A stretch of DNA of 64,000 nucleotides from assembly GCA_951406725.2 (NCBI GenBank), contig OX597821.1, forward strand, positions 41,974,001-42,038,000, in the 5' to 3' direction. How positions within the stretch are numbered: position 1 is the first letter of the stretch; each line of letters starts with the position of its first letter. The DNA comes from Octopus vulgaris. Its lineage: Eukaryota. The notes below the pieces were generated by a model, which was given only the letters and a program-made list of their open reading frames with translations, searched no databases and was not told the origin of the DNA. Position numbers and translations under genes: made by a program. This document shows, in pieces, positions 4,138-63,910 of this stretch.

Positions 4138-4492
4138 AAAGCAATTAAGATTCAAGTCAATTCTAATGAATTTACTTGAATGCGGTACTTAACTTAGATG
4201 CACAAGAAAACTATATGGTGTTAACCATACAGTAATGTGGGGTGATTATAAACGAGAAAGAAGCAACAAGAATGGATTAGTTTTTAGTACAATTGTTTCA
4301 TACAAAGACAGGCTTTATTAAAAGTTGCAAATATTGCAGCAGATAAAAGTGTCCCGTACTCATCAGCTAAAACACATATGATGAGTACGGGACACTTTTA
4401 TCTGCTGCAATATTTGCAACTTTTAATAAAGCCTGTCTTTGTATGAAACAATTGTACTAAAAACTAATCCATTCTTGTTGCTTCTTTCTCGT
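4138..4492 (-). mobile_element. Non-autonomous Penelope-like fold-back element (pLTR plus inverted partial copy) inserted in (TA)n
   Basis: 114-bp inverted arms 4252-4365 / 4379-4492; left arm extends a further ~110 bp; (TA)n on both sides; contains an HHR. Confidence 0.75.
4282..4372 (-). ncRNA. Type I hammerhead ribozyme with long helix II
   Basis: Minus strand: UUUUAG-CUGAUGA-GUAC...GUAU-GAAA-CAAUUG-UA-CUAAAA; 6-bp helix I, palindromic helix III, GUA cleavage triplet. Confidence 0.8.
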
Positions 4493-4511
4493 ATATATAT
4501 ATATATATATA

Positions 4512-4885
4512 GGCGCAGGAGTGGCTGTGTGGTAAGTAGCTTGCTAACCAACCACACGGTTGCGGGTTCAGTCCCACTGTGTGGCATCTTGGGCAAGTGT
4601 CTTCTGCTATAGCCCCGGGCCGACCAATGCCTTGTGAGTGGATTTGGTAGACGGAAACTGAAAGAAGCCTGTCGTATATATGTATATATATATGTATGCG
4701 TGTGTTTGTGTGTCTGTGTTTGTCCCCCTAGCATTGCTTGACAACCGATGCTGGTGTGTTTAGGTCCCCGTCACTTAGCGGTTCGGCAAAAAGAGACCGA
4801 TAGAATAAGTACTAAAAGGTGGTGCTCCAGCATGGCCGCAGTCAAATGACTGAAACAAGTAAAAGAGTAAAAGAGAGTAAAGAGT
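4512..4885 (+). mobile_element. tRNA-derived SINE family A (GGCGCAGGAGTGGCTGTGTGG head, internal (TA)n/(TG)n, GAGTAAAA-type tail)
   Basis: A/B boxes (TGGCTGTGTGG, GGTTCAGTCCC); CORE-like TTGGGCAAG; near-identical copies at 5959, 15809, 19345 and 28785. Confidence 0.9.
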
Positions 4886-4920
4886 ATATGTGACATACAT
4901 TTATGTATCTGTGTACTTCC

Positions 4921-5820
4921 AGGTTGTAGGCACATTATACTGTCCACTTTTAAGATCATTTCCTGGTCCATGGATGTCATTAGGCGTGTCCAGTCTGTTG
5001 TTAGGAATAAAAACAGATTTTTGTTTGAGGTTGATCATGGTTACATGATTCACCATTATTGTGAAAGGCCTGGTTGGGGGCCCAGCCTTCCAAGTTCTTT
5101 TACAGGACTTACAAAAACTGAAGGGCTGCTGCAAAAATTATGTATTTTCAAGAGGGGAATATCTCTTTCTCTTCTTTCTCTTTTTACTTGTTTCAGTCAT
5201 TTGGCTGTGGTCATGCTGGAGCACCGCCTTTAGTCGAGCAAATCGATCCCGGGACTTATTCTTTGTAAGCCTAGTACTTATTCTATCGGTTCTCTTTTGC
5301 CAAACCGGTCAGTTACGGGGACATAGACACACCAGCATCAGTTGTCAAGCGATGTTGGGAGGACAAACAGACACACAAACACACACATATATATATATAT
5401 ATATATATATATATATATATATATATACAACGGGCTTCTATCAGTTTCCGTCTACCAAATCCACTCACAAGGCTTTGGTCGGCCCGAGGCTATAGTAGAA
5501 GACACTTGCCCAAAGTGCCACGCAGTGGGACTGAACCCGGAACCATGTGGTTGGTAAGCAAGCTACTTACCACACAAAATCCTAATTTACTGATCTTCTT
5601 GTATTTTCTTTTACCCAAAGTCAAGAACTTTTCAACACCCCCAAGTACTGTTATAATTTTGGCAACAAGTGAAGTATAGAGGGCGTTAGTGAATCATGTA
5701 ACCATGATCAACCTCAACGAAGAGCCTGTTTTTATTCCTAACAACAAACTGGACACACCTAAAGACATCCATGGACCAGGAATTGGTCTTAGAAGTGGAC
5801 AGCTGAATGTTCCTGCAACC
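4921..5820. repeat. Diverged ~130-bp inverted repeat pair enclosing a mariner-MITE remnant that is split by a SINE A
   Basis: 4921-5053 is the reverse complement of 5689-5820 (e.g. GATCATGGTTACATGATTCAC / GTGAATCATGTAACCATGATC); 5060-5165 and 5575-5645 match the MITE at 20796. Confidence 0.75.
5175..5577 (-). mobile_element. SINE family A
   Basis: Reverse complement of the family A sequence with internal (TA)n. Confidence 0.9.
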
Positions 5821-5958
5821 CCGATACAAATACACACACAGATAGTTACTAGCATATCACAGACATACACAAAAACTGACATATAATATATATAAATATA
5901 AATAACAGAGATACATACACAGACATGATATATATATATATATATATATAAATATATA

Positions 5959-60156: not shown

Positions 60157-62044
60157 GTTTACAGCTTTGTGAATGGCATTTATCATACTTTTCCTGCGCC
60201 ATATTGAAATGCAATCTCTATAAAACACTCTAGTAAGTCACATCTTATGTTCAAGGCAAGTTATTGTAGTGTAACAATGAAGTTGTATAGTGTGGTATAG
60301 ACGTCAGCTGTAGTACATGTTGTAGTATGTACTGTAGCAAATTTTCGTGATGTGAAGCGTAGTGTGGTATAGAGTGTAGAAGTATTCTGCAATACATGTG
60401 GTGGTGTTTAGCACATATATATACTTGAAGAGTCTCTCATGTGAAAACCGCTTGAAAAGTTGTCTTCTTAAACTTAAACTTAAAGAAGAAACTTTTAACA
60501 GAAATACGCAGACATATATATATATATATATATATATATATATATATATATATATATATATATATACACACATACACTCACAATATATATTTATATATTG
60601 CAGAAGCGAAATGATATCATATTATTAAAAGTAAATCATTAAAACAGTGTCTTAATCTTATTTGAAATAAAAAAAAATATGTGAAAGCTGAATATAAGAT
60701 ATCAAATATGTGTGTGTGTGTGTTTTTTTTTTTTTTTGTGTGTGTGTGTGTGTATATATATATATATATATATATATATATATATATATATATATATATA
60801 TATATATATATAAGCATATGTAATATAAAATATTGTAATATAATTATAGGGTATATATATATATATATATATATATATATATATATATATATATATATAT
60901 ATATATATAAGCATCATTGTAATATAAAATAATTGTAATTTTCATCTTAATTCATAAATAAAATGCACGAAAACGGAAATATATTAAAGAATATTAGATA
61001 GATAGATAGAGAGAGAGAGAGAGAGAGAGAGAGAGAGAGAGAAAAGACTATTATAATACAATAATTATAATATTGGTGTTGCATTATATAAAAAGTATGA
61101 AAACCTAATACGCGTGTGTATGTGTGTGATATAAATATATATATGTATATATATATACACATATACATATATATGCATATATATATACATATATATATAT
61201 ACATATATACAGATATAGATATATAATATACATATGCATATATACATATATATGTATATATATACATATATTCATATATATGTATATGATATATACATAT
61301 AGATATTTATGTATAGATATATATATATACATATATATATATATATATATATATATATATAATATATATATATATATATATATATATATATATATATATA
61401 TATATACATACATACATATATATATATACATATATACATATTATTTATTTTGGCACATATATATATGCATGCACACAAACACACAAAAAAAAAACAGGAT
61501 TATTGTAATCTAATAGAAAACATGAATTAGTTTCACTGCGTAATTTAGATGACATCGTGTTTCAACTCAGAACGTTTTCAACTGTAAAAACCTTTCAAGT
61601 CCAGTAACTTAAACAGACATATGTTTATTTTTGAATTATTTAAAGATTAAGAAAGCAAAGAAAAAAAGGAAATAAAAAAAATAATAATATATAAATAAAG
61701 TAACAAAATATACTTGGATATTTTATAATGCCCAGAATCAAGTCACCGTAGGAGAACATAGTTTTACTTCTGAGAATTACAAACATTGACCTATGAAAAG
61801 AAGACGTGCGCACACACACACACACACACACGTGAACACACACAGACGAAAGAAGTGAGAGAGAAAGTGGGAGTGAGAGAATATATTTTGCATAATGTGT
61901 AAGATTGCTTAATTGAGTAGATCAAAATTTTCTCGCCATATTCTCTTATAGTCCACGCAGCCACCTCTTACCGCATCTATCCAGTTTGCGGACAGTCTGT
62001 TCTAATGATGATGCAATAAGCTCAGGTGCCAAAAGAAGCGTAGG

Positions 62045-62079
62045 ACTTGACGTTTCGGCTTTGTACCTTCATCAGGGAT
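62045..62079 (-). ncRNA. Minimal hammerhead core with poor helix I
   Basis: CUGAUGA-A-GG-UACAAAG-CC-GAAA-CG-UC; flanks barely pair. Confidence 0.4.
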
Positions 62080-62087
62080 CTCATTTA

Positions 62088-62254
62088 TAGGGTGGGCCAG
62101 AATTCATGACGCTCTTATTAGTTATATTTTTATATGCTTATCTTATTGTTATTATATTGTTTAAATTTATCATTTTATTTTTTAATATGTGCATTAATAA
62201 ATATTAATATATTAATATATAAAACTAACAAGTGAGTCATGAATTCCGGCCCTA
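62088..62254. mobile_element. Tc1/mariner-type MITE
   Basis: GGCCAGAATTCATGACGCTCTTATTAGT / ACTAACAAGTGAGTCATGAATTCCGGCC with an AT-rich interior. Confidence 0.65.
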
Positions 62255-62829
62255 GATTAATTGTTTGAATTCTGGATTCCATTCAGTTTGTTCTAATTGC
62301 TATTTAGTATACATCCATGCATACACACACTTACACACACACACATAAATGTATTAGTATATATACTAATATATATGCATATGTATATGTAAATTTATAT
62401 GTGTGTGTATGCATGTACATATATGTATATGCATGTGTACATATGTTTATATGTATATGTGTGTAAATGTTTATATATATATATATATATATATAATAGT
62501 GTGCGTGTGCGCATAGACACATATATACATATATAATGTATATATGTATGTGTGTGTATACTTATGCTTCAAATGTTATGCAAGTGTGTGTGTGTATGTG
62601 CATATGTGTTTGTTTGCGCACGCATGCATGTGTGTGTGCGTGTGTTTGTCTGTGTGTGTGTGTGTGTGTGTGTGTGTGTGTGCGTGCGCGTGTGTGTGCC
62701 TGATTAAATACCCTACTACACAAAAGCTGAAGTGTCTGAACTGCCTGGAAGGCATGTCTCTATAATGTGCTGTAAATAACAAGCCACATACGACTGCACT
62801 GGTTGCAGTTATTCAATAGGGGTTTATGG

Positions 62830-63910
62830 GTCAAGGTTGTGTAATAACGACAATTCACAAACACTCTTTTGAAGTTACCCCCCCCCTCTATCTCATACAC
62901 ACACAACTCCCAGCCAATCACCCTTCAGAGCATTCCAAATCTATAACCAGTTCGCAGTATATTCCAAAAAATTTCAAATATTTTTCCCTTTTCCAATTGT
63001 TTATACAAAATATCCTCTCGTTGTTTGCAGTCAGGTGTCTCTCTGCTAAACAATGGATTCTATTGCGTAGATTTCAAGCTCATGAGTATATGATTTAAAC
63101 TTTAAATATAAATAAGCGTTTAAAAGTTAGAACCAACCAATTGCTTAAATACAGAAATAACACCATTGTTAACCTTTCAGGAGCTGAAACATTTTATTAT
63201 TTAGCAACTCACGGGCATCGGTGATATTAAGCAGATAAGAGATAAATCACTCTTTGGATTGAACGATGAGATATTGAAGAAATCCTTCAGACCCTACAAA
63301 AAATATGTAAAAGTCTAGTGCTCAGTGCATAGATTAATTGGATTCTAGCCTGGTTAGCTTTCGTATAAATGAACAAATGTTTCGTTAATTGATTTCTGTA
63401 TAACAATAAGCATTTTTAGGCTTAGCTCACAATGTTCCGGATATTCGCCACTGAAGTGACCAAACCAGGTTGAAACACCGTGTCTAGTGATCCACCGGCA
63501 CTCTGAGTAAAACCCTACTTTTTTATCACAATATATTATGGCGAGTGCTGTTTCACGTTTCAATACATATAGTAAACGTGTATACAAACTAGTATATTAT
63601 AAGTCTTGTTGTTGAGATAGGCTCTCTTTCTTTCCTGATGAGAAGATTGCATTTTACACCGTTTATTCCTTTGGAATAATACCATGTTGTCTTCGAAACA
63701 TATGTTGAAAGTAAAACAATTTAATAACATCTTCGTTCAGCTCCATTTATTTACTTATAATACACAAATTACTGCACATTAACCCGGAGTTTCTACCATT
63801 GAATAGGTCGCTTCATCCGTGTTACTTGCGTGAATTTTGCTACCCTGGTAACTGTTTATTGAATTTTCCATGTTAGCGGTAAACAAAGGATAATTTATTC
63901 ATCCATTTAA
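62830..63910 (+). mobile_element. Probable decayed Penelope-like element 3' part ending at (TA)n
   Basis: Weak NHP..LQSIP motif reminiscent of the PLE RT thumb; intact HHR at 63630; ends in (TA)n. Confidence 0.4.
63630..63711 (+). ncRNA. Type I hammerhead ribozyme, intact core
   Basis: CUUUC-CUGAUGA-GAAGA...UCUUC-GAAA-CAUAUG-UU-GAAAG; perfect helices I and II, palindromic helix III. Confidence 0.85.

Follow-up and report, generated by a model that had tools for sequence, protein, structure and literature searches.

The DNA described here, called the window below, is a 64-kb stretch of the Octopus vulgaris genome (G000:C8:41974001-42038000), and the 2.8 Gb of that genome were searched along with it. 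Microsatellites are abundant throughout the window, and an open reading frame (ORF) search of the 64 kb found no ORF of a Penelope-like element (PLE). Nine hammerhead ribozyme loci are present. Seven belong to type I: two are fully intact, in one the core is intact but helix II is weakened, and the other four show alteration or decay. The remaining two, at 25983(+) and 40787(-), were grouped with the others in the first-pass annotation of this DNA, yet they are differently wired. They contain the full catalytic core in the order cleavage site, GAAA, CUGANGA (S-G-C) and are not hammerheads of type I, II or III, which share the circular order C-G-S and form a three-way junction free of pseudoknots. 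The window can be read with good confidence as a set of truncated 3' ends of many PLE families inserted at TA repeats, each bearing the hammerhead motif from its terminal repeat. Two of them carry a Naiad-typical rearranged hammerhead that is predicted to be likely self-cleaving.

Inspection of the sequence and scans found hammerhead core elements at all nine positions, as first annotated. In a strict scan of the window with all six block orders, the type I order matched at 4366(-), 63635(+) and 57958, the last at chance level, and the S-G-C order at 26089(+) and 40799(-). Applied to 200 shuffled versions of the window, the same scan gave on average 0.285 type I matches (observed: two strong and the one at chance level) and 0.17 S-G-C matches, with a maximum of 1 (observed: 2). 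A relaxed scan for palindromic type I motifs gave 6 matches against a shuffled mean of 0.81, and none of 300 shuffles reached 6. The locus at 29476 escaped the scans because the base of its helix II is mismatched. Hammerhead families were absent among the first 150 of 268 matches of an Rfam scan, where only AT-repeat microRNA noise was seen. Pairwise comparison detected no family-level similarity between the nine regions, which bears out the claim that they share little outside the core.

Genome-wide counts are counts of letter patterns, without a structure check, and the reversed patterns serve as controls. The type I-order core pattern occurs 135,449 times against 39,997 in the control (an excess of ~95,000), and the GAAA-then-CUGANGA order 38,471 times against 6,346 (an excess of ~32,000). 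Among the first 30 matches of the latter order, 14 have a helix I of at least 5 base pairs (bp) together with a helix III of at least 4 bp. Six of the window families have 335-3,624 candidates each, as first-look counts. Given these pattern and family counts, the hammerhead density of the window is about typical. The very large and diverse ribozyme pool that had been proposed is therefore borne out, and the density of type I motifs is by itself ordinary.

The blocks of both rearranged motifs follow each other as IIa-P4a-IIIa-UH-Ia-linker-IIb-GAAA-IIIb-P4b-Ib-CUGANGA. In this order G10.1 and helix II are consequently supplied by an upstream strand and are not joined to A9. The cores are complete (C3 U4 G5 A6 N7 G8 A9, G12 A13 A14, A15.1-U16.1, H17 and helices I-III), and the linker between stems I and II has 3-4 nucleotides (nt) in the window. 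The upstream helix II is GAAGG/CCUUC in family 1 (25983) and GGCUGG/CCAGCC in family 2 (40787), and in family 2 no helix II is possible from the bases after A9. A nested fold prediction recovers only P4 and helix III. The two families consist of units of ~820 and ~830 nt in partial tandems, the longest ATG-initiated ORF being of 79 and 88 amino acids (aa), respectively. Family 1 has 1,659 candidates and 563 exact copies of a 24-mer (control: 0), with copies 96-98% alike over the motif region; family 2 has 3,624 candidates. Among the collected loci, those selected for the core and for helices I and III comprise 48 distinct sequences, which fall into 9 clusters. In 6 of these 9 clusters the pairing with the upstream strand extends over at least 5 bp, compared with 10 of 72 swaps. 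The breaks near 26040 in family 1 contigs, assembled from four runs guessed to be RNA, coincide with polymorphism and are uninformative on cleavage.

The same wiring is associated with Naiad PLE. A motif from the published Octopus Naiad consensi occurs 191 times in the genome (control: 0), and at 9 of the 19 Naiad reverse transcriptase (RT) loci of O. vulgaris the rearranged motif lies in sense ~0.6-1.2 kb after the RT. The Naiad consensi in the supplement of PMC8557442 were read by eye for part of the core-string matches, which does not amount to a census. The rearranged wiring was recognized near the 3' end of Naiad_Ovul and of the preceding record (Obim by file order), in three near-identical Acropora records, in Naiad-2_Movir and Naiad_Plae, in Naiad_Bfor with a helix I of only 2 bp, and in one record each of part 19 (Eulimnadia by order) and part 9. 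The Euprymna record fits it only partly. By the same reading, the core of nematode Naiads keeps the standard order, with an additional hairpin inserted in helix II. In some ostracod and crab records, unparsed by eye, the core strings stand in other arrangements that fit neither order.

Outside this genome, a metagenome scan with a single protein gave no match and no Naiad relative was found in viral contigs. An alignment of 15 RT relatives retrieved 54 metagenome RT loci. The S-G-C motif lies downstream of the RT in sense at 17 of these 54, with no antisense occurrence and no canonical type I motif. In the 17 loci the upstream helix II has 5-6 bp (16/17), P4 has at least 5 bp (15/17), the pairing after A9 is of 1 bp or less (14/17) and the linker between stems I and II has 1-7 nt. 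The DKA motif is found in 12 of the 17. A GIY-YIG domain is N-terminal in 9 of the 10 positives with more than 1.1 kb upstream, and in none is it downstream.

Covariation was evaluated on 26 representatives, 17 from the metagenomes and 9 from the genome (L122 was excluded for a helix III mismatch and L338 kept though poorly parsed). Pairing of strand IIb with the upstream segment of the same locus has an energy of -9.7 kcal/mol, compared with -4.8 kcal/mol for swapped segments, and P4 has -12.1 versus -4.0 kcal/mol (permutation p≤5e-5 for both, n=26). The upstream strand, picked for best pairing, begins with G opposite C11.1 in 25 of 26, and pairing of 11.1 with the base after A9 is limited to 6 of 26. 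The canonical strand after A9 gives a weak signal in the swap test (p=0.047 overall, 0.54 in the metagenome set). Two candidate extra helices, proposed by eye, were rejected by the same test: one between the bases 5' of IIa and those after A9 (p=0.74), the other between the P4/III loop and the tail (p=0.40).

The main argument for function comes from a scan that required helices only and no core letter. In 13 of its 18 downstream-sense matches G10.1, GAAA, UH and CUGANGA are in register, and a fourteenth is the rearranged motif in a shifted register. The core appears in none of the 27 antisense or upstream matches that serve as controls, and H17 is never G in the 13 core-bearing matches. This retention of the core suggests that catalysis is under selection. 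The rearranged structure is almost certainly conserved, and from its sequence the motif is predicted, with considerable confidence, to cleave itself.

The 5' boundaries of genomic copies were mapped relative to the predicted cut for the first-listed matches of each family. In both window families the starts are concentrated 2-15 nt past it. For family 1, 91 of the 563 matches to a 24-mer at +31 were mapped. The 5' end falls in -1..+31 for 26 of these 91 copies, and in -34..-2 for 5 of the other 65 (Fisher p=0.0011). With a 22-mer at +137 (74 of 104 matches), 14 copies start at +2..+15, a rate ratio of 6.6. The interval for family 2 was fixed beforehand from family 1, and of the copies mapped (50 of 245 matches) 8 start at +5..+13 (ratio 4.3, p=0.002).

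The rearranged motif may be pictured as a type-SGC fold re-opened between A9 and G10.1, in which P4 would replace the contact between stem I and stem II. Read-through or tandem transcripts would be cut at UH by the monomer, given that helix III has 4-8 bp and in most copies is not palindromic. Reverse transcription by the PLE enzyme would be initiated internally, close to the tail of the element, as shown for an Anolis PLE (PMC11167929). On cleaved RNA the enzyme would halt slightly before the cut end and leave short copies; on uncut or re-ligated RNA it would read through and generate the partial tandems. Families 1 and 2 would then be non-coding derivatives, mobilised presumably by a PLE. 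In this full form the interpretation is favoured, less firmly than the conservation of the fold: a further natural wiring outside the six block orders, with the backbone open at A9/G10.1, would be the standard processing ribozyme of many Naiads, from ctenophores and corals to cephalopods, with a copy number in the tens of thousands in a single genome and an efficient monomer cleavage that sets the 5' ends of copies.

The closest relatives are the type-SGC hammerheads (HRIMA-1 and variants, PMC10085705). Both share the order cleavage site, GAAA, CUGAnGA, the full core and a short linker joining stems I and II. In type SGC a fourth helix ties the other sides of stems I and II, and its description in that paper suggests equivalence with P4. 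On the other hand, block C of type SGC keeps CUGAnGA joined to a helix II strand, whereas here the block is interrupted, with ambiguity only in lineages like family 1. The rearranged motif, unlike type SGC, has a helix II strand and one strand of the fourth helix at its 5' end. Other hammerhead variants with extra helices are mentioned in PMC13725137. Naiads are PLE with an N-terminal GIY-YIG, a DKA motif and (TA)n targets, and the rearranged motif sits in their 3' terminal repeat, where other PLE carry a hammerhead (PMC8557442). In the same work, Craig et al. (2021) describe Naiads as lacking a canonical hammerhead, with no more than 'HHR_core' and 'HHR_half_core' strings. At least one such string (Naiad_Ovul) is accounted for by the rearranged fold, which is also found in several records that lack this annotation. 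Families 1 and 2 differ from Naiads in having no ORF.

The novelty lies in a hammerhead wiring outside the described scheme that is tied to Naiads across several animal groups. A literature search, which left most subscription papers outside its reach, found no report of a split wiring or of animal type-SGC motifs. If the interpretation is true, the contiguity of CUGAnGA and helix II, on which the six-permutation scheme is based, would be overturned, as would the statement that Naiads lack hammerheads, which had backed the view of hammerheads as dispensable passengers of PLE. Non-circular permutations would move from rare metatranscriptome contigs to high-copy animal genomes, and current descriptors would be missing a large class. 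The start sites of copies would then be a genomic readout of ribozyme cleavage that bears on the role of PLE hammerheads.

Several observations weigh against the explanation by a self-cleaving Naiad-type ribozyme. No coding partner of families 1 and 2 emerged from the searches, in which the units lacked an ORF and no RT was linked to them in sense. The Naiad-like RT matches in the genome are broken, with no intact ORF, while Neptune-type ORF are intact. Of the 54 metagenome loci 37 are without the motif, as are 10 of the 19 genomic Naiad loci; many of these loci, not all, are cut short. Lineages like family 1 can form a 4-bp, wobble-rich helix II after A9, with a signal of p=0.039 in the genome subset, and the covariation p-values overstate independence because some representatives are related. 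As for the 5' ends, the peak lies 2-15 nt inside the cut and not at it, the interval for family 1 was set after the data had been seen, the two family 1 samples overlap, and a TA microhomology bias could contribute in family 2. The type I family at 4282 (29 copies, 30 of 439 matches) shows no peak (0/13 ends), so the 5'-end test has no positive control; this absence fits the poor cleavage by dimer-dependent motifs (PMC6765202). For the Anolis PLE, insertion in vitro did not depend on hammerhead cleavage, and this cleavage required protein (PMC11167929). Finally, the known alignments tolerate only 1-2 inserted nt beside CUGAnGA (Eckert 2023, PMC10085705), so that no tested precedent was found for a break between A9 and G10.1.

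Among the alternatives, the whole set could consist mostly of independent retrozymes, that is minimal type I hammerheads that act as dimers and spread via circular RNAs. The palindromic helix III at seven of seven type I loci agrees with this, and so does the organization of families 1 and 2 as non-coding, partially tandem units of ~0.8 kb, as known for animal retrozymes (PMC7229834). Non-LTR (long terminal repeat) retrozymes are likewise non-coding ribozyme units, likely PLE-derived, and reach very high copy numbers, 120,000 in axolotl (PMC7229834; bioRxiv 10.64898/2026.07.22.740005). However, they are defined by a type I hammerhead per tandem unit and by circular RNAs, and families 1 and 2 are not type I. 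Moreover, the 4282 family corresponds to the terminal part of a coding PLE, and 5'-truncated copies with a fixed 3' end and inverted partners are the PLE pattern. The explanation is thus unlikely, and the retrozyme-like nature first proposed does not hold for the 4282 family at least. Another possibility is a genuine, conserved rearranged fold without cleavage activity: a hammerhead-derived element that binds protein or pauses the RT, with 5' ends that pile up for structural reasons. The separation of A9 and G10.1 on different strands, the offset of the 5'-end peak from the cut and the type I control without a peak point in this direction. On the other hand, all catalytic-core positions are in register across unrelated sequences in which only helices were required, with H17 never G, and at +6..+10 the RT would already be past Ib, P4b and IIIb with little structure ahead. 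A non-cutting element is accordingly rather improbable.

An ordinary type-SGC ribozyme, with helix II formed from the bases after A9 and the upstream strand as a competing off-switch, is very improbable. Family 1 and two related lineages can form their 4 bp after one extra nucleotide, and the weak genome-subset signal lies on the same side. The downstream pairing, however, is of 1 bp or less in family 2 as in most metagenome loci, the metagenome set gives no signal, and the upstream strand starts with G opposite C11.1 almost throughout. Chance matches in AT-rich, repeat-rich DNA can practically be dismissed. The weak match at 57958 is at chance level, and the locus at 62045 has poor helices and no relatives, but the shuffled and reversed-pattern controls, the families of hundreds to thousands of members and the covariation already refute chance for at least seven of the nine loci.

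The features of the window are listed in Table 1.

Table 1. Hammerhead-bearing elements and their parts in the 64-kb window (cut sites are predicted).
Position	Strand	Feature	Details
25935..26321	+	Family 1 element	5'-truncated copy of ~820-nt non-coding unit; (TA)n end
26020..26095	+	Family 1 motif, 5' part	IIa 26020-24, P4a 26026-35, IIIa 26040-44, H17 26045
	+	Family 1 motif, middle	predicted cut 26045/26046, Ia 26046-50, IIb 26055-59, GAAA 26060-63
	+	Family 1 motif, 3' part	IIIb 26063-67, P4b 26073-82, Ib 26084-88, CUGAUGA 26089-95
40690..40968	-	Family 2 element	5'-truncated copy of ~830-nt non-coding unit; short TA and (ATGT)n end
40793..40865	-	Family 2 motif	IIa 40865-60, P4a 40859-53, GAAA 40827, CUGAAGA 40799-93
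	-	Family 2 motif, cut	AUC with predicted cut 40844/40843
63978..64000	+	Start of a further family 2 unit	rearranged motif ~0.55 kb past the window end (L055)
4282..4372	-	Intact type I	CUGAUGA 4366, GAAA 4299, predicted cut after 4288
4344..4497	+	Inverted second copy of the 4282 element	5'-truncated
29476..29613	+	Type I	~100-nt AT-rich helix II insert; predicted cut after 29608
42726..42761	-	Decayed minimal type I	two core substitutions; ACGU helix III
43051..43087	-	Type I variant	core UUGAAAA (U3-A8), A13G in the window copy; left arm of inverted pair
43394..43430	+	Mirror of 43051	helix III palindrome lost
47720..47762	+	Old, decayed type I	G8A; no (TA)n after it
62045..62081	-	Type I, full core	helix II 3 bp; helix I 3 of 6
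63630..63711	+	Intact type I	ACAUAUGU; element extends to (TA)n at 63911

The seven primary type I loci all have a palindromic helix III, as had been noted, and the core is intact at 4282, 29476, 62045 and 63630. They share with the minimal type I hammerheads of PLE (PMC4209133, PMC6765202) the type, the palindromic helix III, a frequent additional base after A9, and the presence of many families per genome with few inside full PLE. They differ by helix II inserts of 40-100 nt in several loci and by two families with U3-A8. The predicted cut is followed within 300 nt by (TA)5 or longer at 6 of 10 sites, compared with 22% of background positions. Type I density, linkage to PLE and (TA)n ends are known PLE biology (PMC4209133, PMC8557442, PMC7229834, PMC6765202), and the picture of an ecosystem of families first drawn from this window is largely known biology too. 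The six abundant families support it, but four of the nine loci are altered or decayed single remnants, two of these four being almost without relatives. One type I-order family, which has a helix II of 6 bp, is very abundant and accounts for about one fifth of the first 100 type I pattern matches (L172, L186).

The coding elements were located through a Pfam GIY-YIG search of the genome, which gave 148 matches, many within 781-aa frames that encode an RT, then a cysteine linker and then GIY-YIG. By their sequence these elements are classed as Neptune type, following the definition in PMC8557442. The motif of the 4282 family is found in sense ~1.4 kb after a Neptune-type RT-endonuclease and before the next tandem unit (L267). 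The proposed link to PLE with RT and GIY-YIG is therefore sound for this family. For 63630 and 42726 only relatives of 71-81% identity lie near GIY-YIG loci. The families viewed have fixed 3' ends, variable 5' ends and inverted partners. A young Neptune-type PLE (L095:406-4087), of which the genome holds many intact 781-aa frames, has an overlapping open frame of 330-380 aa in front and 3' tandem repeats rich in CCAAT-like and TGACGT motifs.

The element at 4282 is the 3' end of a Neptune-type PLE family, and its tail extends to a TA tract near 4138. It has a helix I of 6 bp, a helix II of 7 bp and ACAAUUGU; the family has 2,160 candidates, the best 40 at 96-100% identity. Its inverted second copy is a PLE hallmark. 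At 29476(+) the full core is accompanied by helix I and ACACGUGU, with the base of helix II mismatched in the window copy, and the family numbers 335 candidates. The 63630 family has 2,713 candidates. In two loci (L072:45, L086:2895-2981), motifs resembling it (71-72%) occur in antisense orientation 1.1-1.5 kb downstream from the GIY-YIG end of a Neptune element, and may be inverted partners or unrelated insertions. The family 2 unit at the window end starts right after the (TA)n that closes the 63630 element, which places two adjacent PLE-type insertions in one microsatellite.

The pair at 43051 and 43394 has the core UUGAAAA, which is common to all six other copies viewed, and GGAAC or GGAAG instead of GAAAC; the family has 1,884 candidates. 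The numbering of the hammerhead and the role of its C3-G8 pair are well established. U3 and A8 instead of C3 and G8 occur in two type I families, this one (window 43051-43430) and that of the young 781-aa Neptune-type element (L095:5060-5105; L096:4880-4920), and the exchange resembles a natural compensatory variant rather than decay.

Among the decayed loci, 42726 has relatives that turned up in other loci, including an intact one (L178), and 47720 has 7 matches in the genome, with relatives (L117, L121) that carry CUGAUGA. A genome search with the motif part of 62045 found no relative besides itself. A small element with inverted ends at 62088-62260, of Tc1/mariner-like appearance, is separated by 12 nt from the 62045 core on its upstream side and has probably disrupted helix I of that motif. 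Elsewhere in the window, the remnants at 44279-44866(-) and 10967-11305(-) are presumably a hAT-type transposase and an RTE-type long interspersed nuclear element (LINE), respectively, and positions 51580-52486 hold a 184-bp tandem of a short interspersed repeat.

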